Of a stretch of DNA of 64,000 nt, positions 2,172 through 64,000 are shown piece by piece. The notes beneath the pieces are model-generated. The model saw only the letters and a list, made by a program, of their open reading frames with translations. It did not search any database and was not told where the DNA came from. Made by a program: the position numbers and the translations under genes. The stretch lies in NCBI GenBank assembly GCA_965645245.1, contig OZ287069.1, positions 2,914,001 to 2,978,000 on the forward strand, written 5' to 3'. The stretch's first letter is position 1. The number at the start of each line of letters is the position of its first letter. Origin of the DNA: Massalongia carnosa. Taxonomy: Eukaryota.

Positions 2172-4608
2172 TTAGATCTTGGAGCGTACCAGATCCAAGT
2201 AGCCCTTGGGCGTGGACGCCCGGTTCGCTGTACTATCATCCTCCGAATCTCTCATGACTTCGTCTCCACCGTCTTCTCCACTAACATTGGCGGTTCCAAC
2301 CGCAGCATTGGCAAGATGCTCTAAGCTGCCACGACCGATTGGAGCACTTTTTCCATGAAGCCGCTGCGGATGACCACGCTGAAGTGTTAAAGCGATGTAG
2401 TTGGAAATTATCCAATTCCAGCTTGACTGGTCGACCTTGTGAGCAGTGTTTGCTGTGGTAGATTCCTTGTCCAGCCAATAGCGAAGATCTTGAAGCCCGG
2501 GGAAGATAGCAGCGCTCAATCCGGGTATCTGGAAGTGCTCTACGAGAGCAACGGCAGACAGACTGGCATAGTGGTGGATAAAAGGAGATGTTGGGGTTTG
2601 ACCGGTGCATAGAGTTCCAGCGGTTTTCAGAACCAACTTAACATATTCATCCATTTCGAGGTGATACACACGAGCATGACGTTGTAGTAGAAGTTTGGCG
2701 TGCAAATAGGACATGTGCAGAAGCGGGGCGGACGCGAACAATGATTCGACAGATTCACGGAACCGCTCCAACTGACCATTCAGGATCCGAAAATTCAATG
2801 CAGCCGATGCCCTGCCATGAGAGATGCTTTTAGAGTGGTACAGGAGAATCGTATCTGCGATATGACCTAAAATAAGAGATAGCCCTGATGCACGTAAGCC
2901 TAAATGTCATATATTAGAGAAAGGTAAAAATCTACTCACGAGCAAAGTGATAGCCAGTGTCCCCAAGTAGCACATTGTCTTCACGAAACAAAGTTACATC
3001 TACAACGAGCAATGGGCTCAGCGTACCACCGCCATGCCAGCGATCGATGATCATTAACACGAGCCAGGCACGACGTGCAAGCTTTTCATCTGCATTAGGC
3101 TCCCCATGTTGGTATGGTTGCTTGAGGTGTAACCCTAGAAAGGTTGACATGCTGACAGCTAAGCCATACCAGACTGGTGGCTGGAAGGCACTTGGGTTAT
3201 TGACATCAGTTGCCAGAGCCATCAAGATGAGGGCTTCAAGATAAACAAGATTATCTGTGGGTGATCTCATTGCCGCATCTTCAAACTGTAGCGCCATAAG
3301 AATCTCCGTAGCCTTTGTGCGATGTTGTACCACACGCGGATGTGTTACTGCATCTGAAGAGGCAGGTTTGGCTAGAGTTTGAAGAGCCGCAAGTACAACC
3401 TCGCGCATGTTATCAGAAGCTTTGGCAAGATGACGTAGAAGTTCAGTTTTCGTATCGGGCAGCAGTGGAATTGTCGTATGAACAACGCGATAGTATCTGA
3501 CAAAAATTAGTCACATATCTTTTGCTAAGAAGCTCTTACATACTCATCAATAGGGTATTCATCCCACTCGGAGGGATAGTCCATCTGATCATTTAACTGA
3601 ACTTCCATAGCTGGATTGTCTCCTGGAGTTAGGTGATGATTACCTTGCTGTATGAAAGATTGGGGAGTGTGAGGAGAGTTCATAGGCGCTTGTTGGTCTG
3701 TAGTGTTATGGGGAGTGGAGGAGTAAACTAAATTCCCTTGCACCCCACGCGTCACCTGATACCTACCAATCGCGTCTCCTGCTTGAATTTGATCCGAATA
3801 CCTACCAATCGCGTCTCCTGGAATCTGATGATCTTGCATGTAAGGTGAAGTCTGCACTCGTTCGGACATTGAGCTTGATCTCTTGTTTAGGCCGTATCCA
3901 GGCTCCTCAGGGTGAGGCGAGTATTCGTTGTATGCGGCATATGGGTATCCAGGGACTGAGGGTATCGGGTGCCTAGCTTCCAGTACTTCAACGCGCTCAG
4001 CTAGTTCTTTGATGTACCTAAAGCAATCAGCATCAAGCAAACGCAGAGAACGCGGGTAACAAGGTTTACCCTTTGTTCGGGCCCCTCTTTTGCGGTGTTC
4101 TAGTGAACATGCAGATCGAGTCAGAGCGTATACAGTTATTACATCGGGGTTCAGAAGTATCGGGATCACAACGGATCTTTGGGGGTTAGAGTTAGAAAAT
4201 TAACCTCGGTAGATATTCTGGCAATTTACGTACCTTTTTACGCCGACATTCATCACACGCCCTTGATACCTTAGTACGTTTTCGACTAGAGGAGTCCCCA
4301 GGATTGTGATCGCGATTCTGAGAATTATCAGATCCATCTTGGCCCAGTCCGCTCTGGGCCAATCCACTCTGGGCAATCTGCTGTGAAGACGAAATTTGAG
4401 TCGGCCTCAATTCTTGTGCATTGCGATCGGTATGATATGTCTGATCACCGTCTCCCTCCATTCCGGGGGTGTTTGGATGGACGCGATGCGGTAACGGTGT
4501 CGGTGCTTGCACATCTTCAGTCACGGGCAGCTGGTGTTGGCTGGCAAAAAACGGGCCCGCACCCATTTGCGCTGAGTTTGGCGATGGGTATGATGTATCT
4601 TGTGCCAT
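2172..4608 (-). CDS. Zn2Cys6 transcription factor, Rgt1-like (multi-exon)
   Basis: Spliced reading KRTKVSRACDECRRKK|IRCD...CNNC...CMFTRTPQKRGPNKG|YIKELAERV, followed by fungal TF middle-homology exons (ORFs 2932-3408 and 2172-2798). Confidence 0.88.
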
Positions 4609-5469
4609 TTTCGATGGGTCTTTTTTGGCGGTTCCCAGGTTGATAGTATGACACGGTTGGAAAAGGAAGAGAGGAAGTTTCTACGACGGTGGAGGTAAGG
4701 TTTTTTCCCCTCCATGACGCTAACGCTTTTCGGCATCGCTTGTGATGGCGGAGAGTGATCGTAGTGTTGCGCTTAAGGGGTACAATCAGGCTCATGGTGG
4801 TGTTGAGTGTTGAAGGTAATGAGATGGTGTTGTAAACCGCCGCAGTGTAATAGCCTGAGATGATAGAACTCCATCGGTAGCTAAAATCTCGACTCGGGTG
4901 GACTTTTTTGCGTTCATCGGAACGGGATGAGTCCTCCGGATGTACTTATCAAAGTCATCTACTTCGTACATTGAACCAAATACTATGTGTTACCTAGGTA
5001 TTTGGAGAAGACAAAAGCCCCGTAAGTTTCATAAGGTGCCATCTGCTGTATTAACTTGCGGTCTTTAAGTTAAATATCAAATAGGTAGCTAATGTACAAG
5101 AAAGCAAAGGAGTTTATAATAGTCTTTAGGTTCGGAGCGGATGAAGGTTGGAGCGCAATGACAAGACACAAAATTTATACTCCCTATTGCGGAAGCCTTC
5201 GCTCGTAGGGTGCTATTGATCTGTCAATTAATCGGGTCGATTGCTATAAGGATATCAGGCCGTATATGGCAAGGACTAGTTATAGAACCGATGCTTTCAC
5301 ACGGAGACCCCTAGGTTTTCTTCACTACATCCATTTACCCATCATCTTAACGCCTCGATTAACACCTCCATACAATGATTTCTTCTATTCCGAAAAATAT
5401 TGTCTATGTATCCCAATGGGAATAGGGTTGACTTCTCAAATGCCGTGCCCTAGTAGCGTAGAATACCTT

Positions 5470-6154
5470 CTATCTTTTTTTCTTACCTACAACCTCGATG
5501 AACCCGTCGTTACCTATTTTTGGTTTAGGCTTTTCCCTCGGCACCTTCACGATCGATGGTGCTAGGTCCACCTCCATGGCCTCATCAGCCGAATCTTCGT
5601 CGTCCATATCGCCACTGTCCCAATCTGTGTCATCGGCCTCCTCTGCCCTCTCGACGTGCTTAAATGAAACAGTCCCTCCGCCTCTATTTTGCCTCTCCTG
5701 CCACCGGTTATACATCTCGTCTACCATAGAGAAGTCTCCTTGTAACGTCATTTTTCGAAGCCCAATTATCTTCGAAGCAATCTCTTCTCCACTTCCGTCC
5801 TCGATGTTGATCTCAAACTCATCATACATGACCTGTAGTAGAAATTCCTCGACGTATTCGACATCAGCATTGGGCGTAGATTCGATGAGCTCAGAGATAG
5901 CTCCAGCGAACCAATCGCGCTTCTCAGATGATTGCGGGCCCCCCCATGAATTTTGAACTGCAAGTGTGAGCGCCGGCCATGCCGAGAGAGTTAGAGCGAT
6001 TGAGAGATCAAATTGGGTTTGAATCTTTTCTATCATAAGTCAATACTAGGCTTATCGGGCTTTCGCATGTCGTACCCGCTGATGGAGGTAGAGCAACCCC
6101 CCCTCGAGCTTCTCTAGCTGCTCGCGAAACTGTAAATTCGGGTGATGTGGACAT
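5470..6154 (-). CDS. TSR2: Pre-rRNA processing protein TSR2
   Basis: WPALTLAVQNSWGG...KRDW...DEFEINIEDGS and C-terminal DGFIEVVGKKKR. One intron at ~6030-6075 joins ATG 6154 in frame. Confidence 0.92.
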
Positions 6155-6500
6155 TGTTGTAGTGGTTTGCGGTTAGATTTCCTTGGTGGGAGCACCAACG
6201 CTCGAAGTGAACCGGCTGATGCTTGGCGTTCCGAGACCCGTTCAACCTCATGCTTTCCTATAGTTAGACTCCAAACATTTAATATTTAAAATCAGTTGGG
6301 GAAAGGACGAACACCGCAACAACCTGCTTCTCTGCTCTTACCTTGAGCAACCATGGACAGAAAATGCTTTGCTCCGTCCGTCTCCTTTTTCCCTTTCTAT
6401 TGTTTGTGTTCAGACAGATAAGCAAAAACAGAAACATTATTTACCTCCTCCAATTTGTTTGATATTCATATACTGTAGTCGTTTCACTTCGAGTAAGATC

Positions 6501-8913
6501 ATGGTGTTTAACAGTATATCCGTTGGAGCTGCTGTTGGACCTACAGTCATCCAGACCTACTTCTCTCATGTGTGTAACCCATGGTCATCCTTCCTCTACC
6601 ATTCTCCTATTGACTTACTCCGAAGTATTTCAACCGGAAGCCCCTTCGACAGAAACCAACCGCACATGTCTCGTACCATGAAGGTTTAAATCTAATCCGA
6701 CGATTCCTTCATCACGCCTCGCTTCACACTGTTGAAGAAATTCAAACTTTCACTTCTCAATGGGTACCGACTCCTCGCTGGGTCAAGGTTGATGGAATTG
6801 AAATTCCTGCAAATTCGATTGCCAAGGCCACCAATGCAATTGTCTCCCAGCTAGGTCATAAAGGCATTGACAAGGTGGGTGGGACCAAATGGTGGCAATG
6901 GCGATTGGAAGGCAGTACCTTGAAGGCGGAATGGATTGAGATGAAAGCACACTATGCAAGACGAGAGCAGACTGGCGATAAAGGGAACAGGGTTATGCTC
7001 TATGTGCATGGTGGAGCTTATTTCTTTGGGAGCGTCGACGAGCATCGGTATCAATTGCAAAGACATGCAAGGAAGCTTGAAGCTAGAGTTTTTGCTCGGT
7101 CAGTACGGTACACGTTTAAAGTCAACAAAGAATAATGCTAATGTTGTGCAGTGAGTTTGGTAAAGCTGGGGCTCGTCAAATGTGCTAATCGGCGATAGCT
7201 CGTTATCGATTGGCCCCTCAATTTCCCTTTCCTTGCGGACTACTTGACTGTCTAGCAGCATATATGTATCTTTTGACTGTACAAGATGCATCAACCATTA
7301 TACTAGCAGGTGATTCTGCGGGAGCCGGCATGGTCCTCAGGTTAGCATATCCTATGTTCGCTATGTGATATTTGGCTGATCTACCTGCAGTATGCTTGTC
7401 GTCTTGCGCGACAGAAATATGCCGCTTCCCGCTGGAGCAATTTTGATCTCACCCTGGGTTGACCTGACACATTCTTTTCCGAGCGTTGCTGGTGATGCTT
7501 CGCTTGACTACATACCAGCTCATGGCTTCTTGCATCGCCCGTCTACTGCGTGGCCACCTCCCAATGCTGACGACATAGAGCAGATTGCGATGCATGCGGT
7601 TGAGAAGGTAGCCGGAGACACGGTACCGCGAAGGGCAAGTCAACAGGTTCGGCGTCAAACTATCCAAGACGCAGTTCGAGGTTTCTCGGTTGACCAAGCA
7701 ATTGGGAATATCTACCCGATTGAAATATCAAATAATCCCGGCGGCACTCGACCCACTGGCAGCATGTCTGGTAATACTTTATTCGGGGTCGGCCATGATC
7801 TATCAGTCATGCTTGACGGGAAACTCGTTGGGATCAAAGACCAGATCCAGCTGTACACCACGAACCAGCTAATTTGCCATCCACTGGTATCTCCGATACT
7901 ACAGCCATCTTTAGGTGGCCTGCCGCCTCTACTGATCTTGACTGGTGGCGGTGAATTGCTCCGAGACGAGCAAATTTATCTTGCGCATAAAGCTGCAAAT
8001 CCTTCCCACTATCCCCCAAGTGAAGCGTACTTTCTGGAATACCCGGAGGCACGAAACATTGTCACTAAATGGAGGCCAACTAATGTGCAGCTACAAATCT
8101 GGGATGATTTATGTCATGTTGCGCCTACGCTGAGCTTTACCAGGCCTGCAAAATACATGTATCGTTCGATTGCTCAATTCGGTGCTTGGGCACTTGCACA
8201 AGCCCAGAAGATAGAGATCAACGTACAGGATTACGATAATGTGTCTCTTATCTCCTCGGGTTCAGCTACCGAAAGTGATGAAGACCTTAAGGCAAAACAG
8301 GTTACCATGAGCGGAGACACGGCCAAGAAAGTTGGGAAAGCTGGTGATGCCCTTCCATCTTTTCAAAACCACATGATTCGACAACGTGTGGACCGACATG
8401 GCAACATTTATCCTCTAGGACATGAATCCACCTTGCCAGCATTGAGTGTTCCCGCCAACGAGATTGGTGTGATCAAGCCAGGACCAGTTGGCAAGTGGAG
8501 TGATACAAAACAGGTATGGGACGCGAAGTACGCCAAGGACAAGGTAAAGATTCAGAAGCAAAGAGCAGAGGCTCTGGCGAAGGGGTTCCAGGGATTTGAT
8601 GGCGACGAAGTACCACCACCGTCAGCCTTGGCTGGGAGGCGAGGCCTTGTCATGCCGAAAGAGGAAAAGAAGAGTAAGAGCTGGGGGATGAGCTTGTGGA
8701 GTTTGTGGGGTAGCTCGCACGATCAGAAGACGGTAGGGTTACGTTTGCCATAAATCGTGTTCTAGCTAACAGGTCGCAAAGATTGTGCGTGAAGAAAAGG
8801 CTGAAAAGGAAGCCGACGTATCGACTGCCATTGGACATGATGGGGCTAGTGATAGTCCCTCAAAAGTGCGTTTCAAGGTGAAGGGCGTACTCCTACACTG
8901 TTTCCTGACCTAA
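6501..8913 (+). CDS. Alpha/beta-hydrolase, hormone-sensitive-lipase family esterase (multi-exon; 3' end uncertain, may extend to ~9160)
   Basis: HGGAY oxyanion motif (~7007), GDSAG nucleophile (~7310), ISPWVDL and WDDLCHV; canonical GT-AG introns. Confidence 0.88.
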
Positions 8914-33226: not shown

Positions 33227-33924
33227 CGTTGGTAAAAATAATGTGGATGTTGAGGTGAACATGATGAGGAGCACGAGGAAGAGCTTTTAGGTTAAATCTA
33301 TAAAGCTGGGTTAATTGATGAGAAAGATAAAGAGGTGGTGCACTCCTACATTGGGTGAATTGGCGTTCAGACTTGCAGAAGATAGATGAATATGCGGGGG
33401 GGGTTGCAGGAATGACGCTCTTGCTGCAATCTCAATTGGAGTTGTGGAGTTGAAAATCTATTGACGTCATCCTAAAGAAGAAAAAAACGCCTGTGAAACA
33501 CAATAAATACCTGTTTATGTGTTAAAGTCCAGAGAAGCTATGATGAAAAATTAAAGAGGTAGTACATACCGTATTATCTGGCAGATAAAACCCTCGGTCA
33601 TAAAACCCCGTTCTGATTAGTCAAATTCCACCGTTGGGTGGTTGGTCCATAAAACCCGGTCCTTTCCAGTTCTAAGAACAAGTACATGGATTTGTATATA
33701 ACTTTCACCCAAACTATGTATCTTTTCTTAAAGTCAATTTGATCCGAGAATCAATCCTCATCTGCATTCATTTCAGTCTCATCATAATCAAAAAGAACAT
33801 TCAGATTATTCATTTCATCTTTCAATTCTCTCTTCATTACGTACTCTATTTCGTCATAAACGTGAATTCAGAACGTTGATTTACATTTGATATGCAAATT
33901 CACGAAAATTATCGGGGAGGGCTC

Positions 33925-34064
33925 TTGCCTCAGTACTTCGTACCTCAGTGTGCGTGGCTCTATGAGCCGGCTAAGCCCCTCCGGGTTAGCCTACCACCCT
34001 ACTTTGCTGAGCCCCTTCGGGTTAGCGGCTGACTACGCATGCTACGGGCCGCACGTCTGAGCAA
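33925..34064. mobile_element. Solo terminal module (mini-element) of the AcademH-like element
   Basis: Close match to the reverse complement of the right TIR at 42248-42413. Ends TTGCCTCAG...CTGAGCAA; flanks GGGAGGGCTC / GAGAGGGCTC (8 bp identical, 9/10 overall). Confidence 0.8.
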
Positions 34065-34306
34065 GAGAGGGCTCTTGCTAGGGCTCCGATTTGAAAAGAA
34101 CACTGAAAGTTTGCCTAACCCGATCGGGCGAAACTTTCACTGTCATCTTCATGAGTGAAACTTTCATGGATTATTTACAGGGGGGGAGGGGGTGGGTAGG
34201 GAGGTGCGGAAAGGGGGAAAAGCGGGGAAAAGTCAGCAAATAGTAAACTTAAAAAGTACGTAATTTTGCCGGTCATCGTCATACAATTAATTGTATGTAT
34301 TTCTAC

Positions 34307-36306
34307 TTATTCAACCCATGATCTCGCTGAATCACCTCCTATTTCTTGACTGGCCGGACGTTTCGATGACGTCAAGGACTCCTGAATGACAATTTCATCC
34401 TGCAGCAATCTGTCTTCCATTTCACATAGATCGCTTTCGTCAATGTCGATGCCAGCAAATTGTAACTTCTTTTTGATATCCCCAGGTCGGTTGAGGGTAC
34501 GCTCATTCATGTAGATAAACATGAGTTTATCTACGCTTATCGAGCTCATGGAATTGCGCGTTTTATTCATGATCAGATTCATTACCGACCAGCTTCTTTC
34601 GGCCAATACCGAATTACCAGGAGGTTTCATCACCTTTCTGGCTAAGCTGCTAAGGGTTGATGCAAAATTTCTGCTGAATGTCCAAAACAGCTCCGGATCC
34701 ATTTGATACGTCCAGCATTCGGAGCTTGTATGAAAGCCATCTTCTTGATCGCGAAATGCGAGCCATTGCTTCATGGCAGTAGCTGCCTCTGCACTAGTCA
34801 GATGTTGATTGAAAAATCTATGCATTAGCGGAGCAAATGTCGGCTCCGTAGATACGCCAATCACCTTTATAGCATGATTCTGAGGAAGCAAAAGAGCTGC
34901 TACCACATGAAGCTCAGTAATCTGACTGAGATATCTGTCTTCCCAAATCACCTAAGCAATGTGATTCAAATCCGTCTCGTCGTCTTCATTGGCAGCCATT
35001 GAATATAGATGAGATCGAATCTTATTCCAGGTGTTGGCTATGGTATAAAGTTTATGCTCTTCGGCCTCGGACATGTATTGAAACTGATGTATGGGATCCA
35101 TCACTTTCTTGACAATGGTCAGCTTTTTCCAAAAAGAAAAGTCATTGACGAAGCTTCTCAAAGAATTCTTTCTTCCCTGATCAATGCCGGGATTCTTTTG
35201 TTGAAAATAATCCAATAAGGCCTGCTGATTCCTGAGGACTGAGTTTAATAAGCCTATCGTCGTTCCCCATCTGGTAAGAACGTTAAGAATCAATGAACGA
35301 CGTTGTTGATAGGCCTAGAAGTTTGAGCATCAGAAAGGTTGGTCATCAGAAAGTTTAATAATTCAAGAATTTGGCATACCTTCATTTGATAACCCCTTAA
35401 AATGGACATTTCCTTATTCGACCCCCGAAAGCTGGTTACTATCAATTGTGCCTTTTCTATAACCTCCGAAAAGAATGGAAATTTCAGTATGTCTCCCATC
35501 AGCAATTGCAGACCATGACTGTCGCAGGGAACGAAAAACACGTGTTTCATGTCTGGAAATTTTGCTATCTCCGTCCACATAGCCTTCATGGTTGCACACG
35601 TATCAGTGGCAATGCAATTGATTCTCCAAAGCTGATCGTTGGTTGCTTCCCTACAACCTTTTATCACCCATTGAGCTTGAACGACAGCACTCATCTTCTC
35701 GGCAACACCAGCATCAGCTTTCAATTGAAATCCTCCTCCATTGGAGGTGGCGGACGGGGGAACATGACAACAGAGATTTATAACACGTTCTTTTCGAATG
35801 TTGGCTGTCTCGTCAGTGAAGAAGTTCAGGTAATTAGAAGCATTCAATTCCTTGATAACTTTCGATTTAACGATGCCATAGATTTCGTCCAACAGCTTGC
35901 CAGCAATAAGGCCAGAATGAGGAGGTTTATAGCCCGGATTAAGTGCCTGATGATGAGCAATAACGTACGGATTTTCGAAGTGGTTAAATGGCAGATTTGT
36001 CATATAGACAGACATCGCAGCTGCTCGATGTGCTGATGCAATTTGGGCTTGATTAAGGGGACGAATCAACGTAGTGATGGGCAGTTGAATAGAGGCATTA
36101 CTGAGAATACCCTTCTGTTTTCTAGCTTTCTCTTTTTGATAGGCATCACATTGATTTAGATGCTGTTGTCCCCTAGCAGCATTTCTGGTTGATTGATGAC
36201 CGCAATGAATGCATTGATGTTGAGGATTTTTTAAGCCCTCAGTAATGATATCCTTGAAATTCTCATCTACCAGGTGATTTTTCTGACGTCCACCTCGTTG
36301 AGACAT
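34307..36306 (-). pseudogene. hAT transposase with one premature stop
   Basis: BED-like finger CIHC...HLNQC, FFTDET, IATDTCATM, PCDSHGLQL, TRWGT and dimerisation motif NSVLAERSWSVMNLIMNKTRNSM. Intron 35315-35379; in-frame TAG at 34952-34954. Confidence 0.88.
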
Positions 36307-36885
36307 AATAGATGATAATAGAAAGATTCCTGATTATAAGTGCAATTACCTAGTAAATCGAGGTACTCCGATATTCTACTAATTGTTTGCCTCAGTACCT
36401 CAGACGTGCGTGGCTCAATGAGCCGGCTAAGCCCCTCCGGGTTAGCCTATTTTCGCTAAGCCCCTTCGGGTTAGCGTCGCTGCTGACTAACATCAGTGCG
36501 ATAGCACGTCTGAGCGCAAAACTCAAAATTACGGCCAGATCCGCGTAATAAAAATTTTAGCAGTGCAACCATTCCTTTTATGGATTTAATACAATGATTA
36601 GGGTCGTATTAGTTTACCAGAGACTGTATTTTATACCAAAAACGCACCTCTCAAGATGGATGACTCGATAATCATGTGTTATAACTACTGTCAGGCTAAG
36701 AAAAGCGATGTGAAAGTCGATTAAGTGATAAATTGTTCGCTTTCGCTCAATTTTGAGGTTGATGAACTGATTATTTTCATGTGGCGCGATTACATTGAGT
36801 TACAAAGATCATGATGATATGAATAACGACGGCCAATCAATGGTATTGTATGATTTATCTAGATTGAAGCTATCTGACGAAAGCC

Positions 36886-39564
36886 ATGGCTCTTGTCGGG
36901 GGCCCCTCCTCGCCACTTACCGACCTACGGACAAGTCCCTTGACTCCCGCCGGTGCGCTCAAGCGGCCCCACCCATCGCCGTCAGGCAGTAATGATAGCT
37001 CACCCTCTTCCTCCTCCCCTCCTGCCTTACCTGAAAAAAATGGAGGCGCGAAACGCCACCGCCGGCGCATATCAGATTACGACAAGCTGGTTGAGGTGCT
37101 TAAATTTCTGAGCTCTCTAAATTGGTCGGTAAAAGATTTTTTATCAACACTTTGTAAGAATCGAGCCCGTCATAGTATGCGAAAGGCGCAAGGCCAGCTC
37201 TTCGATTTTGTCTATGTTGATATTGTGCGGCAAGAAGACTTTTCAAGCCTCATTGGGCCTGGTAGAATATCCACTATCCTTCGCGAGAGAGGATGGGTTT
37301 GGGCCGCGGATGTGCTTCGTGAAGAAATCAAAGCTTTGGCAGATCACGCAGCCTTTGGCCCTTTCCAGCCGCCCTCTGCGACAGTCGAGTTTGGGACCTT
37401 GGAGGCTATTAAACTTGCTGCATCTGCCGCCAAGCAGTTGGCGCCACGATGGCTTGAGCTAATTGATAGTGTTTGTCGCGAGGCTCGCCCGCAGGAACCT
37501 CTCGATGTGACGTTGGATTCTCCCAGCGGCCGGCACACCGTTATATTGGCAATGCTTTGTCACAAATTGCGACCAAATAAGGCGACCAATATTCAGTCCG
37601 TCTTAGGCCTTTATATTTATCAAGGTGGGGCGAGGCGGCGAGTTCTAGATACACTCTGTCATTTTGACCTGACGATGTCATATACTACCCTGCAGCGGCG
37701 CATGTTGTCCTTGATTAAGGAGGCCGAACGAAAGGTTCAGATGCTAGGACAAGGCTCAAACATGATCTTGACATACGATAACTTTGACTTCGCAGAAGGT
37801 AAACGAGGAGAGCGCACGGGGGATAATAGAGACGTCAGATCAATCACTACCGCTCTAATTTTCCAGGGGCAAGGATTCGATGCCGGCGCTTTGAGGCAGG
37901 ATATGTGGCGCCCCGCCACGCATCTTTTATCAGCTGAAAGAATTGCGCGAAAGCTGGAGACTGGTGATCTCGAGATGCAGGTGAGTTCAATACAGGACGA
38001 GGTGTATATACCGCGCTCAATCGCTAATGCACCGCGTACCTAGATTCGTCTTCATCATCTAGAGTCAGCGATTCGAGCGCTTTATGGCCCAGAGATCGGC
38101 GACGTTCAACTTCCTTGGTCGACTGCAATGCCCGTGCTGAATAAGATGAAAAAATACAAGACCAATTACATTCCTATCAAACCAGTCATGAAGGATGAGA
38201 GCACAACATCTAATAATATTCAAATATTGGAGGATATATTTGTGCGACAGTTCAAGTTCAAGGAGGATGACTCGACGTTTGCGAGCGTCATTCGGCTTAT
38301 CTATGGTGACCTCAAGACATGGTCGAGAATGCAATCTGTCAAGGAATTACGTCGTGGGATATCGGAGCAATCTTTCGATCGGTTCGACTGGATTTTACCG
38401 GGATTAGGGTTATGGCATCTTCGCTTTAACATGCTGCAGCTTATTCATAAAATACATTGGGGAGAGGCCCAGCCGGTTGATCCTTCGACTCTTCAATATG
38501 CCGCCGATCGGTGGGGCCGCGCTCGTGTCGTGCAGCCGAACGATTTCCAGGCCTTAGAGGATCTGATCATTCAGAGCTATCAAGCTAGAATCGTTGGGAC
38601 GTGGATTAGGTTTTTACGAAAGGATGGATATGCTCCGCAGCGAATCGAAGCAACTATTTCGTGGCTCACAGCGCAGACTTGCGGGCAGGATGGCACCTGG
38701 ATGAATATGTTGGGCAGGATATCTCGCAAACTTCACGCGGAATTACCCTCAACGTCAATAGATATGCTTCCTCCAACGCTTGATCAACAATTTCAGAATC
38801 ATCAGAACTTCTGTGATCACGTTGAATCGTATCTAACACTTCGATACGCAATCAAATATGCGGATATTGGACTACTTCGTCACGCATTGCGCCACGCAAC
38901 GGTGATCTTTCAGGCAAGCGTAGCTGGCACCCCGAAATATGCGCAAGCTCTTCTATACACCCTTCATGCGATTGATTCTTCCGCAGCGACCATAAGGCTA
39001 CAGGAAAGTATTTTAATGAATAGTCTTGTCAATTTACGCGGTGACGAAGAGTCGAGTTTTGAGACTGATCGGCTTTTAGAGATACTAAACAATAACCTCA
39101 AGACGTTCCAGCACGAGCGATCTTATTTTTCAAAGTATAGTGACACCTTGCTCGAGAACTGGGCACTCAACGGTCCATATCTTATGAAGCTCAAAGAAAT
39201 CGTTGAGTTTTACTTTGGAAGAGTCAACTCTTCAAGGCATCCAGCAAAATCGGCCGCAGAGGATGTGTGGGGCATGGCTACGGCACTAGCGCATAAATCA
39301 CTCTGTAAAAGAAGCTATGATCGATTTTCAACTAATCCAACAGCTAATCTTTATGTTGAGGGATTGAAGAAACTTGGAGAAAATGTATTAAAATACAATC
39401 AGCAGTATCTTTCCGAAGAAATTTCAAAAGAAATTTCAACAGACGACCTTGAGGGTAAGTATGAAGCCGAGCCCGATTTTGTCAATGAAACAAAGCAGGT
39501 CCCCGACAGCCCTGTCATTTCAATGGCCCGTCTCGAGATATCCGGCGGTATGTTTTTTGATTAA
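36886..39564 (+). CDS. Academ/DUF6589-type transposase (~871 aa, 2 exons)
   Basis: Intron 37981-38043 (GTGAGT..GCTAAT..TAG) joins the two ORFs in frame. Candidate catalytic motifs YDNFDF, YGDLKT, PGLGLWHLRFN and FETDRLLEILNN; no internal stops. Confidence 0.8.
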
Positions 39565-39623
39565 ATCATCGATACCACGAGATAGCCTAGTCATGTAAAT
39601 CCGCGCCGCGCGGCTTTACAGAG

Positions 39624-41799
39624 TCAGAGGTAGCGGACGGGGCACTTTCTTTCTTGTCTAGATCGTGTCGGAGGAAGGGCCATGGGTACATTCAGCGACA
39701 ACGCTTCCATAGGATCTCGAGGCGCTTTTTTGGTCTTTGATGCCTTCATCGATGATTTAAGAGCATCAACATTGTCAACAACGAGCGCCGCATCGGAGAT
39801 ATTGTGATTAGGCGCAGGATTCTCGCCCGATGGCTCCGTGCTCTCGCTTTCCTTCGAGACTTTCTTCTTGACCGCATTTCGCTTTTTAAAAACCTTTCTC
39901 GACATATATCCTTGTTTGATCATCCAGTTTTTCCTCCGTTCCTCAAATTCAATACTGGCGGAGTTGCATGTTAGGCTGGGTAATCGTTTTCTCTTTATGT
40001 CGTTGTGTCGTTTCCATTCCTCGAACATGTCTCCCTCGTCTAATCTCATTGCTTGACCCCGCTTTAAAATTTCTAAAAGCTCGGCGCCGTAGGGCCTAAT
40101 ACCAGTCCATGTGTTACCAATCCATCGCCGCATGGTGGGCTCGTCCACAATCTGATCCGCCCAAGTGGTCAAAGAATTCAGTACCTCATCGGGCATTATC
40201 AATGATGGGAAGTATCGCATATGTGAATTTGGGAACTTTTCCTGCGCCTTGGCCTCCCTCCATTCTCGAAGTTTAAGGGTGAACCAAGGCCGCCTAGACG
40301 AGTCACGCTCGGCCGTTCTATTTAACATCTCATTGGCGGCTGTTGATGTCTGAAAACTTGGATCGCAAATTGAACAGCAAGGTTGCGGCTTAACATAGGC
40401 CGACGTTGGATACACTTTATCATTGAAGAAATTCAAGCCAATACCTCGAACGCAACCATCTGAAGGCACATTGATTATCTCCCAAAGACCCGGTGGCATA
40501 TCTCGTCGCCGATCAGCATCCTTTTGATTGATGCGGCGTTTACTGGCCTTGGATTCAATCTCGATTCCCGCGTCATATCCGTCCTGTTCGTCCATTTTTG
40601 ATCCGCTTCTTGGACCCATGCACCAAGAAGGATGCAAAAGAGTAAAATGCGCCTGTCCTCGACCGCAACGCAAAGCACGACCTAAACGTTGGTATAGCTT
40701 CGCCATTGACGAGGGTAGCAGCCATTGCGTAACTCTCATAACGTCTGGATTATCAATACCAAGCCCGTATGCATCCGTTGCGATCAGGATTCGAGGAAAT
40801 TTACATTGATTCGAGGGCATTTCGAAGCGAGCCGCAATCCTTTCTTTGTCTTGGGTGGCCATGTCGGAAAAGAAAGGCGCGACCCAACTAGCAGCCTCAA
40901 TTGGATAGGACAATTGATTCATCCATACTTTCATTAGCGCACACGCCTTTTTGATAGATGAAATTGAATCCATGAAGATAATCGTTTTCGGAATATCAAA
41001 AGGACTCTCAGCCCGTGTTGGTAAAAGATGTTGAAGATCGATCATGCTGTTCATAGGCCGCTGTAGACTGCTTGTCTGTATGTATATCTCTGGACGATCA
41101 AGCGCTGTTTGAATAACAGTACTTTCGTTATCAAAGCCACAGCGATCTTTAACGCTCTCTAGGGTTCTTGGATCCAGCGTTGCAGACGCACCCAGAAAAG
41201 GAATACCATCTGGTAATCGTGTACGAAGCACACCGAGATTGAAGTATTCGGGCCGGAAATCTCGCCATTCGGATACAAGATGCATCTCATCAAGAGCTAA
41301 AAGACATAAATTCAAGAAGAAACTTGGATGCCTCAGAACCTCCTGATTAAACAGCTTTGACGTCGCTATCTCTGGGCTAGTAAAAACTATTCATATTAAC
41401 GAGTAAGTTTTTATATTTATCTCAATCATAATTTGAATACACACCATGCGTATAATTGTTTTCACGAATTAACTTTAAATTAGAAGAATTATTACTATCA
41501 CCGTCCAACACGAAAGGCTTGCATCCCTCGATAACGCTCAATTTCTTGCACTGTTGAGCTTCTAAGGTCTTGAGAGGCATGATAATTAAAGCGATCTTAA
41601 GACAAGAGAACATTAATGGCATAGCTTGAAAGATAATACTCTTTCCAAATCCAGTCTTGGCGATAAATATCAGATCCTTTTGATCTTGTGCTAAAGTCAT
41701 GATAGCGTCAACTTGCTCATTCTTTGGATAAAAGCCGAATTTACTTAAAATCACGGTCGTCACCTGCTCGCGAGTTATCGACGCTATAGGATCGTCCAT
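39624..41799 (-). CDS. RecQ-like superfamily-2 DNA helicase (transposon-encoded, 2 exons)
   Basis: AKTGFGKS (motif I), LDEMHLVSEW..FRPEY (II plus aromatic loop), GASAT (III), ATDAYGLGID (V), QRLGRALR (VI), C...CCSIC Zn module and HRDC-like LREWR helix. Intron 41387-41444. Confidence 0.92.
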
Positions 41800-43576
41800 T
41801 TCGATGTGTTCGCGAGCGATATTCGACGATTCGCGAGTTGGATTCTTAGCCCGCAAAACGCACATCAAGCAAGTTCATCACATTCAACGATTTTAGGCTT
41901 TCGAAAACAACGCTCGGAGGATCAGATTAATGATCAGAAGCGCCGACAATGAAAAACTGGAGCTAGTGACCCGTTGAGTCTGCTGTGGTGGTGTCGAAAT
42001 TTCGAGTCAAAGTCGAGTCCTCGTCGCGAGATCGATATTGCGACTCAATTTTGCATCGATATGTAATTAAAATATTGATTAATCGATAGAATGTATATCA
42101 AAGCATCATTTCTATTATTACATAATTTATGAAATGTCGTTGCGCGTTGTTGATTCCGCCGTCAACTTGATTCTTGATGATTTTTGAGGTTAAGCCAAAA
42201 ATTTGTATGAGCGCGCACCAAAATAAGCCGGATCTGACAAAAATACAGAGTTTTGCGCTCAGACGTGCCGCCCGTAGCATGCGTAGTCAGCTAAAGGGCC
42301 GCTAACCCGAAGGGAATTAGCGACGCTAACCCGAAGGGGCTTAGCGAAAATAGGCTAACCCGGAGGGGCTTAGCCGGCTCATAGAGCCACGCACGTCTGA
42401 GGTACTGAGGCAACTAATTGTCGTATAAGTTATGTGTGCTTAGGTAATTAATTTCCAAAAATTCAGGGTCCATGTCAGCACGTGATGAATTTTTCGTGTC
42501 ATCTTGTCAAAAGAGCGAAATTTTCGGAGCCCTAGCTCTTGCTGTTTCTAGGTGCTGACTCAGCCCCCTCCCATCCATAAGACCCCTGTCTCAATTTTGT
42601 CCATGAAACCAGGGTGCCAGATAATACGGTATCTCGTCGCCTGAATTAAGACTCCATAATAAATCAATGTAACATTTCCTATTTACAGCCAACCTGCATA
42701 TAGGCTTGAGAGGGGATCCTTAGAGGTCTCATCATTGGATATGTTCCATGTGTATGTGCAGAACTGAAGCTGTGTACGTAGATCCTGTGCTACTGCATAG
42801 TCATCGTTGATCAAAAATTTACTCGTCAAGAACATGCCTTCGAACACCAACCAACATGTCACATTTCTGCCTTCCCTTCTGTTCTGGATCGCCTCCCAAC
42901 TACTTGCCCCTCTTTTCAAATATATCCATCACATCCTAATAGCAACATCTACTTTCGCTCCACTAACCATGTCTTGCTTACCAGCCTAAGTTCCTTGGCG
43001 AACCCTTAAAGTTCGAGCTCCGTATTCTTTCACCCCTTTCTTCGGATAAATAGTCTGTGGATACTCGAGGCATCCCTGCATCGTTCAGCTTAGCCTTCAT
43101 CCTCGAGTAGGGAAATATAAGTCCTTCGACCACTTGGCAGCGCGTGCCAGGTCAAGGTAGAGATCATATAATGGCGTGGCGGGCTCCAAAGGAACCCACT
43201 TGGGCAGTTAGTTGTGAAGCCCCGAGCGGAAAAAATGATCACTATGCAGGCTAAGTGGTCATAAAAGTGTCTGCCATGTGAATATATCTTGTAAAGTAAA
43301 TGACTTTGATACTGAGTAGCGAAGTTGACAGGATCTACCTATTTTAAGCACCTTATCATCCACGGATCTAATCGGAATCTCCGGAGATGTTGTCCGGCTA
43401 ACTATAGTTAATCAGATAAGATTGCGTTTTTCTCCGATTTTCGGTGGTTTCGTGTCACGAAATTTTTTTTCTTTCAGAAGCTGATTCATCATGTTTGTCT
43501 CTCTTGTTAACGGCCTTTGGGTGGTTTTTCTACTGTTTTGTTTTTGACAAAATTTTCAATTTAAGTATATCTGAAG

Positions 43577-46500
43577 ATGTATCTCCAACAAACAAAAACC
43601 AAAGGTCCTGCAGGGTCAAAAGACCGGCCCCAAGTATCCAAGCAGCAATCTTCAAGTCTTCCCTTTGGGCAAGCCCTTCCACTCACCTCAATTGGTGGAC
43701 CGACTTACTTAACCGCACAAACACTCATTCAGCAAGTTGCTTACACGCTATCTGATCGGCTGTGGGCGTTCTCTCCAGAAACGTTTGATCTCGATATTGC
43801 CGCGAAAGATTGGTTTGGACGGGGTTTGCACAACGCCAGGGGTTATCCTACAAATGTTGAATCCATGGAGATTCGGCAGGGTGCTGCATCTATAACTCTT
43901 GGGTACATGTTCTCCAAAGATTTCGACCTTAAGAAACGTTACATTCCACAATCAATGTTGGCCCCAGCTGCGGCATTGCGCTACCTTCATACTGCCCTAG
44001 ATCAGTTATCCCTTTTATATACAGTCGCCAATCCATTTGTTGCTCACATAGCAGCTGTCGATTATTCATCTACGGGCTTGGTCACAGACTACGTGTCAAC
44101 GATGACTTTCGCAGACGAGCTGGGATTTGCCGTGGTATCAAGTTTTTCTGCCTATGAGACACAGCATCTGTCCCTACTTGCGACTTTACTCGCAAGCTTG
44201 GCCCCGACTATACACACATATGATGGCATCAGCATTGGGCGCGAGACGACCAGAATAATTGATGTTATAAATCAAGCTGGCCTGGAAAGCACATATAAAA
44301 CGGTCTTACAAGAAGTCTCTACTTCAGGAAAGCGGAACGAAGATCTAGACGCAAAAGTTGTGCGGTTGCTCAAATCATTTAATGGCGAGCTTGGCACAAC
44401 CTATGGATTGTTCGAATATCAGGGCCATACCACACCTCATTCTGTTCTCGTAGTGTTTGGAACAATTGAGTCCTCGTTGGCTTCCCAGGTCGCATCATCA
44501 TTGGTGGAAAGCGGTGCCAGGATCGGAGTTCTCAATGTAAGGGTCTACCGACCCTTCGTCGAAGAAGAATTTCTTCGAGCAATTCCAAAATCTGTAAAAG
44601 TTATAGGAGTATTGGGTCAGGTGCACGACAACCATGGTGTTTCTGACAGTAGTGTATATTCAATACTTCATGGAGACGTGATGGCAGCTGTGACGTTCTC
44701 CGATCGGTGGTCACAACCCCCAACTGTTCTTGATATAAAATATCCAAGAGAACGAGTCTGGTCACCAGTATTGATGGCTGCCGTTTTCCAGTTATTTATG
44801 GAGAAGCCAATTCTACAACAGAATCATAAAACCGAGATATCACAGTTTGCCTCCCAGCTACAATTGGTTGATCCTACCAACATTCAGCAGTATACATTCT
44901 GGGACATCAATGATTCACCGTCAGCCTTTGCACCGATGATACTTGGGCAGGCGCTTTCCATAGATTCTGCTAATAATATCACTATAAAGACTGGTCACGA
45001 TAACTTGATTCAAGGTGGCATCCTTCGAACTGACATTCGCAAGTCAAAGAAAACCGTTGAAGCGTCATACTCAATTGAATCAGCAGATGTAGTCTTCGTA
45101 GGCGCAGAGAGCCTTTTTCGCTCGATCGATGTTCTAGATGGTCTTACTGTTGGCGGATCGATCATCGTAAAGCTACCTGGAGTCCAGAATGCCGAACTTG
45201 AAAATAAGTTGCCTGTACACTTCCGGAAAGGTCTTTTTTCAAAATCCGCTCACCTCTACGTACTTGATACATCAGCCCTAGAAGCTGTGGCAAATGATCC
45301 ACCGATGGAGACATTTCTGGTCCAGCTCGCTTTCTTGCGTGTTAGTCTTTCAGATCTTGAGAAAGTCAGCATCCAGAGGTTGGCATCTGTCACTGGAGCA
45401 ACTGAGATTCTGGATGTGCTCGCCAAAGATATTGGCAAAGCTCTCAGGCAGGTAGAAATCCCCGAGTCTTGGGCGGTAGAAGAGCTAGAGAAAGATGTTC
45501 AGCCTCTACCGTCAGATATCAACGTGAGTAGCTTTACCGGATTTGAGAAGGATGAGTCAGAACTACCTGGTTTCCTCAAGGGCTGGAAGACAGTGGCAAA
45601 AAGCTTGGTTTTCAAGGAAGCCTACGGAACCAAAACAGTTCTTCGTCCAGACGTCTCTTTAAAGACCTATACGGTGCAGGTCAAAGAGAATCGTCGACTC
45701 ACGCCCCTGAGTTACGAGAGAAACATATTTCACATTGAATTTGACTTGGGAAATTCTGGGATGAAATACGATATTGGGGAAGCACTCGGTATCCATGCGG
45801 AGAATGACGAGTTTGAAGTTGAAGAATTCATCAAGTTCTACAAGCTGAACGCGGATGACGTTGTGGAAATACCTAGCCGAGATAATCCAAACTTGCTTGA
45901 AAACCGGACGGTTTATCAGGCTTTGATGCAAAATGTTGATATTTTCGGGCGGCCGCCTAAAAGGTTTTATGAGGCCCTATCTAAATTCGCCGATGATCCC
46001 AACGAAAAAAAGGAGCTTTTGACATTGGGTGGACCCGAAGGCGCCACGGAATTCAAAAGAAGAGCCGAAGTGGACACTATTACCTATGCGGACATCCTTC
46101 TGGAGTTTTCTTCGGCGCATCCAAGTTTCCACGATATAGTCAGCATCGTCAATCCTATGAAGCGTAGGGAATACTCTATTGCATCCTGCCAGAAAGTCAC
46201 CCCGAATACTGTGGCCCTGATGATAGTCGTAGTAGGCTGGGTCGATCCTAAAGGCCGTGACCGATTCGGGCAAGCTACACGATTTCTGAACAAACTCAAG
46301 CTTGGAGCCACCGTAACTGTCTCGGTGAAACCTAGCGTAATGAAGCTTCCCACCAAATCCACCCAACCACTCATCATGGCTGGCCTTGGCACTGGTCTTG
46401 CACCCTTCCGCGCTTTTGTTCAGCATCGAGCGTGGGAAATGGCGCAGGGGAAAGATATTGGGGCCGTGTTGCTGTACATGGGCTCCCGCCATCAGCGGGA

Positions 46501-62737: not shown

Positions 62738-64000
62738 CAGAGGCGAATCTCAAAGGTAATGATAATACGCTAAAAGCTAGTGCCGTAATTTAAATTTTCC
62801 GTACCGAGCAAAATTTCCCCTTTTCTTTCCCCTTTTCTCATCCCAAATCATTTACGAACCAACATTTGATCAAATCATCATCATGGTCAATAAATCAGCT
62901 GATATTTCTTTGCGGGCTCAGGTCTTGACGTTGTCTTATTGCACCCTGGCCTCAATTGAATTTATTGCAGCTACTACAGGTTATTCTGTCCCCAACATTT
63001 ATCGTATTCGTCGCATTGCCAGGGATCGAGGATTTGATCCCGCCATTTCTTTGCAGGTGCTTGATAAATATGCCCGTCATGAAGAAAAATCTGGTCGACC
63101 GAGAAAGGCTACTACTGAGAAAGAAGATGAAGTCATTGATCTAGTCATAAAAGACAGATACGCCCGTGAAAAAACCAGTGCCCAGTTGGCAAGAGAAGTT
63201 GGACTGTCCAGATGCACCGTGTGGAGAATCCTGAAACAAAGAGGCTATAAAAAAGTCAAACCGTCGTATAGACCAGGGCTTACTCCTGAAATGAAAGCGG
63301 CTAGACTGGCTTTTTGTCTCCTGTATAAAGACTGGACCGTGGAGGATTGGAAGCGGGTTATTTGGTCAGATGAAACAGCAATAGTGCTTGGTCACCGTCG
63401 CGGAGCTGTCAAAATTTGGCGTACAACCAAGGAAGGAAGAAGACCAGTCAAATCCACCGTACGTGCCAGGTGGCATGGGGCTCATGAATTCATGTTTTGG
63501 GGATGCTTTTCCTACAATTGGAAGGGGCCATGTCATTGCTGGAAACCGGAGACAAAAGCGGAAAAAGCGGAAGCCAAAACCAAGCTTGACGAGATGAATG
63601 CTGCATTGGAAGCCAGTGAGAGATTAAATTGGGAGCTGACCAATGGAATGAGACGTCTTTCAACTCGCAATTTACCAGGAAAAAAGCCGCAATGGAAATG
63701 GGATGAGGAACATGGAAAGATGATCAGAAAAGAAGGTAAAGGAGGCATTGATTGGTGGCGGTATCAAAACGTCATACTTCTGCCAAAACTGATTCCTTTT
63801 GCTCAGCAATGCAATGCAAAAAGAAGAGAAGCCGGATTGTCTGAAATGATCGTACAGGAAGATAAGGCTCCGTCTCATGCTTCCAAGCATCAGATTCCCA
63901 TCTTCTCTCGTCATGGCATCGAGCGTCTTTTATGGCCCGGAAATTCTCCTGATCTCAACATGATTGAACCCTGCTGGCCCTGGATGAAGCGACGTACAAC
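62738..64000 (+). mobile_element. Tc1/mariner transposon, left part (cut by window end)
   Basis: TA|CAGAGGCG... candidate left end ~145 bp before the transposase; right TIR not visible. Confidence 0.75.
62883..64000 (+). CDS. Tc1-family DD34E transposase (partial, open to window end)
   Basis: MVNKSADISLRAQV..., SGRPRK, WTVEDWKRVIWSDET, FMFWGCF and QEDKAPSH...WPGNSPDLNMIE with 34 residues between D and E. Missing from the ORF track because there is no stop in the window. Confidence 0.93.
   Translation, partial: MVNKSADISLRAQVLTLSYCTLASIEFIAATTGYSVPNIYRIRRIARDRGFDPAISLQVLDKYARHEEKSGRPRKATTEKEDEVIDLVIKDRYAREKTSAQLAREVGLSRCTVWRILKQRGYKKVKPSYRPGLTPEMKAARLAFCLLYKDWTVEDWKRVIWSDETAIVLGHRRGAVKIWRTTKEGRRPVKSTVRARWHGAHEFMFWGCFSYNWKGPCHCWKPETKAEKAEAKTKLDEMNAALEASERLNWELTNGMRRLSTRNLPGKKPQWKWDEEHGKMIRKEGKGGIDWWRYQNVILLPKLIPFAQQCNAKRREAGLSEMIVQEDKAPSHASKHQIPIFSRHGIERLLWPGNSPDLNMIEPCWPWMKRRT

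Follow-up and report, generated by a model that had tools for sequence, protein, structure and literature searches.

A young helicase-carrying DNA transposon from a lichen-type ascomycete, very probably a new family of the AcademH lineage

AcademH, the Academ lineage with a helicase, is already described (Kojima 2020, Mobile DNA 11:15, as cited in PMC10045372 and PMC10799480), and it is taken here as the available text of these citing papers presents it. By those descriptions, AcademH makes target-site duplications of 9 or 10 bp (PMC10045372) and is low-copy in fungi (PMC10799480). Two further systems are close enough to be compared. In the same available text of PMC10045372, AcademX has 3-4 bp duplications and a nuclease instead of a helicase. 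KolobokH is a fungal inverted-repeat transposon with a RecQ helicase, of the Kolobok group, for which the available part of PMC9587614 gives TTAA 4-bp duplications and 5'-RR..YY-3' ends. The element described below lies in the window, the whole 64,000-nucleotide stretch of Massalongia carnosa DNA analysed here, and is very probably an autonomous cut-and-paste Academ transposon, a new family of AcademH from a lichen-type ascomycete (Lecanoromycetes). The lineage itself is not new; the family very probably is. No earlier report of an AcademH family from a lichen-type fungus was found, and no entry for PF20231, DUF6589 or Academ appears in the PMC10799480 supplements. The element resembles AcademH, as far as the citing papers describe it, in its inverted ends, its apparent Academ-type DDE transposase, its separate RecQ-like SF2 helicase, the long duplications of its relatives and its occurrence in fungi, including Ascomycota. 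It differs in being high-copy and near-identical, whereas fungal AcademH is low-copy (PMC10799480), and in the 8-bp duplication of the window copy, which reaches the 9-10 bp of AcademH only if a terminal A is counted as flank.

The element occupies positions 36387..42413, a 6,027-bp unit with inverted ends and a direct repeat at both flanks, just as the initial annotation had placed it. Its borders are as follows.

36379..36386, no strand: left target-site duplication, CTAATTGT, of which the empty-site contig has a single copy
36387..36543, plus strand: left terminal inverted repeat, starting TTGCCTCAG
42229..42413, minus strand: right terminal inverted repeat, with three 21-nt palindromes and a fold-back as at the left end
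42414..42421, no strand: right target-site duplication, CTAATTGT

The outermost 30 nt match exactly inverted at both ends (2 matches in the window, 0 expected); so long an exact match is unexpected at random. Inverted repeats of 138 and 166 bp had been proposed at the outset and could not be reproduced; the ends comprise 95 nt with 1 mismatch, with weaker similarity out to about 157 nt on the left and 185 nt on the right, where the arm holds an additional 27-nt repeat unit beyond the 95 nt. The left end contains two imperfect 21-nt palindromes (36426-36446 and 36455-36475), and its nt 13-23 recur inverted at 36504-36514; at the right end, the inner copy of the fold-back lies 146-156 nt from the end. 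Read from its sequence, each end of the element is a conserved fold-back, a new point of this analysis. In the predicted layout, a 12-nt tail precedes a stem (nt 13-28) whose inverted copy lies 66-146 nt inward, with small GC hairpins enclosed, and the stem appears to vary in sequence between families with its pairing kept. By symmetric reading of the ends, the duplication of the window copy is 8 bp; the 9-bp reading, ACTAATTGT, is obtained only with the terminal A at 42413 counted as flank.

Both genes lie between the inverted ends. They had been described as two uninterrupted convergent genes 59 bp apart; the convergent orientation and the gap (39565-39623) hold, but neither gene is uninterrupted, as each has one canonical intron. 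The transposase gene is laid out as follows.

36886..37980, plus strand: transposase exon 1, 365 codons, with the N-terminal region and the first catalytic motif, YDNFD (D298)
37981..38043, plus strand: predicted transposase intron, 63 nt, phase 0, canonical GTGAGT..CTAAT..TAG
38044..39564, plus strand: transposase exon 2, 506 codons and stop, with DUF6589, GD (D454), WxxPxxGxWH (H490) and DxxxE (D707, E711)

Once spliced across the predicted intron, the gene encodes a stop-free protein of 871 aa. The intron is supported by a homologue (P0048) that is collinear across it and by a relative locus (L001) that is gapped at the same place. The D-D-(GxxH)-D/E motif order claimed for this protein was recovered, at D298, D454, G487..H490 and D707/E711 of the spliced sequence. 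Exon 2 matches Pfam DUF6589 (PF20231) over profile positions 59-410 with 209.1 bits (E 1.2e-61), where the gathering cut-off is 27 bits, and the same domain is present in 57/57 homologues. In an alignment of 112 sequences, conservation of the motifs is high (D1 64/65, D2 72/77, H 74/76, E 72/75). Judged by these motifs, the 871-aa protein is a DDE-type transposase with D298, D454 and E711 as its putative catalytic residues. Profile searches of solved structures with the transposase gave nothing meaningful (best E 0.22), and searching the Protein Atlas with DUF6589 excluded returned weak unnamed arthropod and mollusc clusters only.

The relation of DUF6589 to Academ can be approached through the Academ RNase H profile (RNase_H_Academ.hmm, 465 nodes) in the supplement of PMC5751038, which, by the available text of that paper, rests on Repbase Academ sequences plus later representatives. 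As given there, the profile reads f-D-N-w-D, y-v-p-i, g-d-q, w-l-v-p-f-l-g-f-f-H and D-e-a-l-E..K. Nodes 1-40, 118-245 and 424-465 were compared, and within this part of the profile the Academ motifs (DNxD, GD, WxxPxxGxxH and DxxxE) recur in the window protein in the same order at alignable conserved positions. A collinear score over four blocks (46 scored nodes), picked after the match had been inspected, came to 52.0 bits, against a mean of 23.7 and a maximum of 35.1 in 300 shuffles. Other long DUF6589 proteins behave alike: all 18 of 18 score 37.4-64.6, above every one of 62 controls (at most 31.7). When the window was scanned in six frames, the D1 and W..H blocks ranked top, and the D2 and E blocks fell outside the top 6 sites. 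The evidence of these comparisons says that DUF6589 is probably the Academ catalytic (RNase H-like) domain, which is a new point. The expectation of the initial annotation that the large ORF would match DUF6589 and Academ was thus borne out, the latter on a partial profile, and its AcademH-like interpretation gains support, at the level of sequence, from this fit, from the RecQ-family helicase and from the 9-bp duplications of relatives.

It could be argued that DUF6589 elements are a separate group sharing few catalytic motifs with true Academ, in which case the AcademH label would be wrong or too narrow. This seems unlikely to us. The profile derives from Repbase Academ sequences, by the available text of PMC5751038, and its best-conserved positions are the ones matched, in the right order and suitably spaced; the range of the family in Atlas rows, fungi and arthropods, also fits the AcademH range reported in the available part of PMC10799480. 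What speaks for a separate group is that only 210/465 nodes were compared and 46 scored, that the window duplication is 8 bp by symmetric reading versus the 9-10 bp of AcademH in PMC10045372, and that a fused XPG nuclease was found in none of 33 long family members. The last point, with no XPG domain matched in the element itself either, also sets the element apart from AcademX, whose XPG nuclease is fused, although the catalytic domain fits the same superfamily profile. The second gene is laid out as follows.

41445..41865, minus strand: helicase exon 1, with motif 0, Walker A (TGFGKS) and motif Ia
41444-41387, minus strand: predicted helicase intron, 58 nt, phase 1, canonical GTGTGT..AATAG
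39624..41386, minus strand: helicase exon 2, with the DEMH box, the RecQ aromatic loop, SAT, motifs V and VI, a four-cysteine cluster and the C-terminal region

Spliced across its predicted intron, this gene is stop-free and encodes 727 aa; in relatives L003 and L009, the corresponding position is gapped by 63 nt. Pfam matches are to the DEAD and Helicase_C domains. The claim of a RecQ-like helicase agrees with the closest solved structures, which are RecQ, WRN, RECQ5, RECQ1 and BLM. In the alignment to 1oyw, the DExH box, aromatic loop and motifs III-VI are matched and the core alone aligns (E 9e-17); for motifs 0, I and Ia the alignment is to WRN. Membership of the RecQ family was judged by SF2 motifs, by the aromatic loop and by a cluster of zinc-binding cysteines, with RQC and HRDC optional. 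Across 31 sequences, 26 helicase columns are invariant, including SAT, motif VI and the four cysteines (C311, C336, C337 and C340). This cluster falls at the position of the RecQ zinc site. Judged by these features, the second gene encodes a helicase of the RecQ family, with its predicted catalytic motifs and zinc-type cysteine cluster kept family-wide. Cellular RecQ proteins (E. coli RecQ, WRN, RECQ1, RECQ5 and BLM) likewise have motifs 0 to VI, an aromatic loop following the DExH box and the cysteine cluster. The helicase differs from them in that its core alone aligns, in having no Pfam match to RQC or HRDC, and in carrying about 340 C-terminal residues that matched no known family.

Relatives as distant as 25% identity also have the paired transposase and helicase, the terminal motif TT[A/G]CCTCAG and duplications of 9 bp. 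The helicase adjoins or lies near the transposase in 16/41 related loci and was not seen at the other 25, including L005 and L007 despite 10 kb of downstream sequence. Transposase and helicase hits include 11 pairs on contigs of equal size, within which identity to the window rises and falls in step (Spearman 0.91); linkage of the two genes has been kept while they diverged in parallel. The long duplications attributed to the lineage are found in all three complete relatives (L019, L025 and L027), each with 9 bp, one with a mismatch, and L025 could be 10; the interior of L025 has no long ORFs. Two other loci, L009 and L011, have one common insertion site and no recognisable right end. Could the element instead be a Mutator-like element that captured a host RecQ gene? 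Mutator-like elements typically have long inverted ends and 8-10 bp duplications, as the window element has with its long inverted ends and 8-9 bp. Such a capture is nonetheless very unlikely: neither exon of the transposase gene matched MULE, SWIM or any Pfam transposase family other than DUF6589 at E up to 0.01, and the helicase is not a recent capture, since its linkage extends across families to a transposase identity of 25% and the two genes diverge in parallel.

The element is mobile, young and recently multiplied; its first description had proposed a young copy. It splits another transposon, which is a hAT by its 8-bp duplication, short inverted ends and dimerisation domain.

34079..42535, minus strand: hAT transposon split by the element, 2,430 bp without the insert, with ends TAGGGCTCCGA

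The hAT duplication (GCTCTTGC) lies at 34071-34078 and 42536-42543, and its domains are DUF659 and hAT dimerisation (PF05699). Each of two public runs has a contig that passes from 36377 to 42413, skipping 6,035 bp with 9 letters shared, and so represents the empty site; one of these contigs has 820 nt, 719 nt of it left and 101 nt right. Because the flanks of the element are repeated hAT, the empty-site contigs are other hAT copies. Contigs that leave the right end (42413) into unlike sequence number 4 and 6 in these two runs, and one contig leaves the left end (36387) in this way. In run X4, 2,519 of 3,201 aligned contigs are at least 99% alike. The exact ORFs of the window recur on multiple large contigs (478 aa on 7, 385 aa on 10 and 553 aa on 10), clusters of window ORFs at 90% comprise 72 and 43 distinct members, which lie on at least 11 contigs that differ in their Mb-scale length, and short end-to-end deletion forms are present alongside many near-identical copies at other sites. 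Being multi-copy and having an empty site, the element is not a syntenic single-copy gene pair such as might lie in relatives without inverted repeats. A host or domesticated pair, a RecQ paralogue and a DUF6589 protein between chance repeats, is an extremely improbable reading. DUF6589 loci without a helicase (L005-L007 and L013), with the same layout in several assemblies, would suit it, but it is opposed by the empty site, the many copies with other flanks, the identical ORFs on 7-10 contigs, the deletion forms and the 30-nt exact inverted match.

A KolobokH element has almost no chance of being the right reading: it too is found in fungi and carries a gene for a RecQ helicase (PMC9587614, available text), but the duplication here is 8-9 bp and not TTAA, the ends are TT..AA and not 5'-RR..YY-3', and the KolobokH helicase lies downstream of the transposase domain where here it is a separate convergent gene. 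The Helitron reading was dropped, the element having inverted ends, a DDE enzyme and a helicase of the RecQ type. Helitrons are likewise eukaryotic DNA transposons encoding their own helicase; theirs is of the Pif1 type and is fused to a Rep nuclease, and they lack inverted ends and make no duplication.

We know of no bench test of AcademH by anyone, nor of an established job for its helicase. For the AcademH element in the window, the transposase would bind each end at its repeated palindromes and at its terminal and inner sites, which form a pair, excise the element and join it to a target cut with an 8-9 nt stagger, the repair of which would give the target-site duplication. The helicase would be an accessory factor. 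It could tentatively be given the task of opening or remodelling the fold-back ends, or of peeling the non-transferred strand for a host flap nuclease to finish the cut, although the chances are against this; the fused XPG nuclease of AcademX may do an equivalent cut-finishing job. Aid to donor-gap repair is the other main possibility. A more doubtful idea is that the ends of AcademH are conserved fold-back modules; if these are real DNA structure, their extrusion or resolution may be the reason why the element has a RecQ helicase of its own, and if they are not, they would be two binding sites instead. Should the idea be true, AcademH would be a DDE transposon that needs a helicase and structured DNA for the recognition of its ends. 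The window copy is a practical start for transposition assays in which the helicase is supplied or left out, because it is intact and recently multiplied and its borders are fixed within one base by the empty site.

Care must be taken with annotation. It had been foreseen that such genes would be mislabelled, and their public labels are indeed 'hypothetical', 'DUF6589 domain-containing' and 'superfamily II DNA helicase RecQ'. The one paper found that names DUF6589 discusses two possible roles for it, in virulence or in epigenetic regulation. If DUF6589 is the catalytic domain of a transposase, DUF6589 gene counts in fungal genomes would be transposon copy counts, and some annotated 'RecQ' genes in lichen and other fungal assemblies may likewise be transposon copies.

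Runs X5 and X6 have cover for the element without its flanks. Close to the hAT lies a further small unit, of the same end family as the AcademH-like element.

33925..34066, plus strand: solo end or MITE-like unit, 142 bp, 76-81% alike, with GAGGGCTC on both sides

Its duplication shows the same ambiguity between 8 and 9 bp as that of the window copy.

The two genes of the element (36387-42413) are convergent and have stops 59 bp apart, as the initial annotation described, but they are not uninterrupted as it had held, since one short intron is predicted in each:

36886-37980 plus 38044-39564, plus strand: transposase gene, 871 aa, one canonical intron
37981-38043, plus strand: transposase intron, 63 nt, phase 0, GTGAGT..CTAAT..TAG
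41865-41445 plus 41386-39624, minus strand: helicase gene, 727 aa, one canonical intron
between 41445 and 41386, minus strand: helicase intron, 58 nt, phase 1

These predicted one-intron models are supported by homology, because P0048, an 838-aa database homologue, is collinear with both transposase exons and because exon matches in related loci on JGI metagenome contigs leave gaps at the same places (79 nt in the transposase of L001, 63 nt in the helicase of L003 and L009).

A Pfam search matched exon 2 of the transposase to DUF6589 (E 1.2e-61, profile positions 59-410), a domain that the initial annotation had anticipated and that is present in 57 of 57 transposase homologues found. Named relatives come from lichen fungi and one Fusarium. 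With P0048 as the query against 1.84 billion cluster representatives, 1,032 clusters matched at E of 1e-3 or below, and DUF6589 was the sole domain in all 33 of their long members. Two profile searches of the PDB with the transposase found no relative. A profile of the Academ domain, RNase_H_Academ.hmm (465 nodes, 44 sequences), is printed in the supplement of PMC5751038, which gives as its source the alignment of Yuan and Wessler, extended with later Repbase entries. Nodes 1-40, 118-245 and 424-465 of the 465 were compared, and the D-D-(GxxH)-D/E motifs first read in the ~871-aa protein align with them at D298, D454, H490 and D707/E711.

Academ profile nodes, profile letters and matching transposase residues
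Nodes 2-7: fDNwDi, YDNFDF (D298)
Nodes 24-30: tngialq, TTALIFQ
Nodes 151-154: yvpi, YIPI
Nodes 190-192: gdq, GDL (D454)
Nodes 214-223: wlvpflgffH, WILPGLGLWH (H490)
Nodes 450-454: DealE, DRLLE (D707, E711)
Nodes 461-462: lK, LK

The transposase agrees at 7 of the 11 capital-letter positions among the compared nodes; P9 is mismatched, and G137, G240 and S430 are unaligned. Four blocks, chosen after the match had been seen and centred on the profile's most conserved positions, were scored from the emission rows. When the window was scanned in six frames, the block around D298 came top at the predicted site (13.1 bits vs 13.0 for the runner-up), as did the W..H block (21.6 vs 18.4 bits); the D454 and E711 blocks fell outside the top six. 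Collinear scoring of all four selected exactly the predicted transposase sites with 52.0 bits, against a mean of 23.7 (sd 4.1, maximum 35.1) in 300 shuffles. Other long DUF6589 proteins scored 37.4-64.6 bits (18/18), and the highest score among 62 controls, made up of 58 helicases and 4 window ORFs, was 31.7. GDQ.T, as in the Academ profile, is present in many relatives, and an alignment of 112 sequences keeps the candidate catalytic residues D298 in 64/65, D454 in 72/77, H490 in 74/76 and E711 in 72/75, the last followed by N in 75/75. From these comparisons we conclude that DUF6589 is the putative RNase H-like catalytic domain of Academ. The authors of PMC5751038 described the Academ domain in 2017 as having no Pfam counterpart; in the literature searched, the one paper naming DUF6589 discusses it as a possible virulence or epigenetic factor, and nothing was found there tying it to Academ.

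The RecQ-like identity proposed for the second protein was borne out. Pfam assigns it DEAD and Helicase_C domains, its best solved relatives all belong to the RecQ family (E. coli RecQ at 9e-17, then WRN, RECQ5, RECQ1 and BLM), and the alignment to solved RecQ spans the DExH box, the aromatic loop behind it and motifs III-VI, with motifs 0, I and Ia of exon 1 aligned to WRN. Across the 31 family members compared, 26 columns do not vary; SAT and motif VI are among them, as are four cysteines (C311, C336, C337 and C340 in exon 2 numbering), which sit at the position of the RecQ zinc site. Pfam found no RQC or HRDC domain, and the last ~340 residues matched no known family.

A scan of JGI metagenome contigs yielded 41 related loci, 16 of them with a helicase match. 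The helicase is convergent and immediately downstream in eight (L002, L003, L009, L010, L011, L034, L036, L037) and lies 6-8 kb off on the opposite strand in the other eight (L017-L019, L025, L026, L028-L030). No helicase was found in 25 of the 41; many of these loci are short, though L005 and L007 extend 10 kb downstream. On equal-sized contigs, 11 transposase and 11 helicase matches have identities to the window that co-vary (Spearman 0.91, n=11, phylogenetically non-independent). These data show a RecQ-type helicase that is conserved and linked to the transposase. As a separate observation, L005, L006, L007 and L013 form a DUF6589 lineage (40% identity) that keeps one layout across four assemblies and lacks a helicase within 10 kb; it may be a helicase-less or domesticated branch.

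The 6,027-bp unit and its flanking direct repeat stand as first described, with borders at 36387 and 42413 and the target-site duplication on both sides:

36379-36386 and 42414-42421: target-site duplication CTAATTGT
36387-36546 and 42226-42413: fold-back ends

The outermost 30 nt have an exact inverted copy at the opposite end and are absent elsewhere in the window (2 matches; 0 expected in 100 shuffles). Inverted ends of 138/166 bp had been proposed; the ends are indeed inverted, but the arms are alike over 95 nt with 1 mismatch, and weaker similarity extends to ~nt 157 (left) and ~nt 185 (right), the right arm having one additional 27-nt repeat unit past the 95-nt match. In each arm nt 13-23 have an inverted copy, at nt 118-128 on the left and nt 146-156 on the right, and a 21-nt imperfect palindrome occurs two or three times between them; single-stranded folding gives z = -5.1 and -4.8. 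This layout, with nt 13-28 as the outer stretch, recurs in relatives with differing sequence (loci L001, L003, L011, L015, L019, L022, L025-L029 and L035), with changes on both stem sides between families. An exact inverted word of 9-17 nt, reached by at most ~2% of shuffles, occurs in 16 of 21 ends tested; its outer start is always at nt 13-22 and its inner copy 66-146 nt from the end. The five failing ends comprise one with a terminal duplication, the right end of L021 with an 8-nt word (23/500 shuffles) and three with short words only, and in the left ends of L021 and L023 these words lie at the same place. Several families also have a small GC hairpin ~50 nt from the end. Either a pair of inversely arranged transposase-binding sites or an actual DNA structure could account for the pattern. 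Families at only 25-35% transposase identity share the terminal motif TT[A/G]CCTCAG with a second CTCAG after it.

The window is unremarkable, gene-dense fungal DNA: it carries PAP1, the complex I 30-kDa subunit, BUD22 and a sulfite reductase whose best named relatives are from lichen-forming Lecanoromycetes (Sticta 77%, Pseudocyphellaria 75%). Within it, the element is nested in another transposon:

34079-42535 (pieces 34079-36386 and 42414-42535): hAT transposon hosting the element, 2,430 bp without the insert
33925-34066: solo end or MITE-like unit of the element's end family, 142 bp, 76-81% alike

The hAT shows ends TAGGGCTCCGA.. and is flanked by an 8-bp duplication of its own, GCTCTTGC; it carries DUF659 and hAT dimerisation domains and a transposase reading frame in at least two pieces (34307-34951, 35290-36333). 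The 142-bp unit lies just to its left with GAGGGCTC at both sides; the hAT insertion postdates this unit, and its target overlaps the right GAGGGCTC copy. Three transposon events fall within ~150 bp. An 18-nt inverted pair, ATACCGTATTATCTGGCA, at 33566-33583 and 42615-42632 encloses the whole nest, with no clear duplication and single-copy contig depth, and may be an old element or chance. At 62781-63998 an open reading frame encoding Tc1/mariner-type HTH and DDE_3 domains extends past the window edge.

Mobility was assessed by aligning contigs of four public runs to window 33500-45500. An empty site was found in two runs as a contig joining 36377 to 42413, with 6,035 bp skipped and 9 letters common to both sides; one such contig is 820 nt (719 nt left, 101 nt right). 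Since the host hAT is itself repeated (summed contig depth ~40-60x the unique right flank in two runs), the empty site is seen in other hAT copies, not necessarily at the same locus. In the same two runs, 4 and 6 contigs continue beyond 42413, the right end, into sequences that differ from one another, and one contig exits the left end at 36387, indicating further copies elsewhere with both terminal bases inside the element. The duplication of this copy, like that of the MITE-like unit, is 8 bp, or 9 when one terminal T/A counts as flanking sequence: an A directly precedes the left CTAATTGT and the element's last base is A, so the 9-bp reading holds only if that base is assigned to the flank. 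The exiting contigs favour 8 bp.

Summed contig depth over the element in run X4 is 100-230x the unique flank, a measure not equal to copy number, and 2,519 of 3,201 aligned contigs are at least 99% alike. In the protein collection, exact window ORFs of 478, 385 and 553 aa occur on 7, 10 and 10 contigs; their 90% clusters contain 72 and 43 distinct members. Many of these members are truncated, and they come from at least 11 contigs that differ in their Mb-scale length. The organism may be represented in these counts by more than one assembly. These data show that the element is present in many young copies, and it is not a single-copy gene pair. Position 37218 is C in all four runs vs T in the window, a synonymous change. 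Several X4 contigs fuse left and right end regions directly (e.g., 36498 to 42272) and look like short internal-deletion forms. In runs X5 and X6, labelled as other organisms, the element (36387-42323) appears at depth 2-3 with a single difference and without flanks, which could reflect low coverage of the same fungus, with only the high-copy repeat assembled, or the element in other species.

The best placement for the element is as a new family within the known AcademH lineage, as AcademH is described in later papers. This placement, already suggested in the initial annotation, agrees with the Academ profile match, the RecQ-type helicase and the 9-bp duplications of all three complete relatives (L019, 11,238 bp, with one mismatch; L025, 12,509 bp, 10 bp if a terminal A is counted; L027, 9,404 bp). 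Such lengths fit the 9-10 bp given for AcademH in PMC10045372 and not the 3-4 bp of AcademX. Fungal AcademH, including Ascomycota, has been published and is described in PMC10799480 as low-copy; our literature search found no paper on Academ in lichen fungi. KolobokH, the other fungal lineage that carries a RecQ helicase, is excluded because it makes TTAA duplications and has RR..YY ends (PMC9587614). Pfam found no Mutator domain in the element's proteins.

The conserved D, D and E mark the transposase as a DDE-type enzyme, which would move the element by cut-and-paste with the target cut staggered by 8-9 nt. The favoured role of the helicase would be to remodel the fold-back ends or to displace the non-transferred strand for a host flap nuclease, paralleled by the fused XPG nuclease of AcademX; PMC10045372 relates the duplication lengths of AcademH and AcademX to their respective accessory enzymes. 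The main alternative is that the helicase would help in donor-gap repair.

In L001 (63% transposase identity; 2865-8830), the left end (26 nt, 96% window-like) lies 6 kb upstream of the transposase, and the interval holds two ORFs, one of 879 aa that weakly matches PhyH dioxygenase (E 6.5e-5) and one of 516 aa without a family match, which may be cargo or a nested insert.
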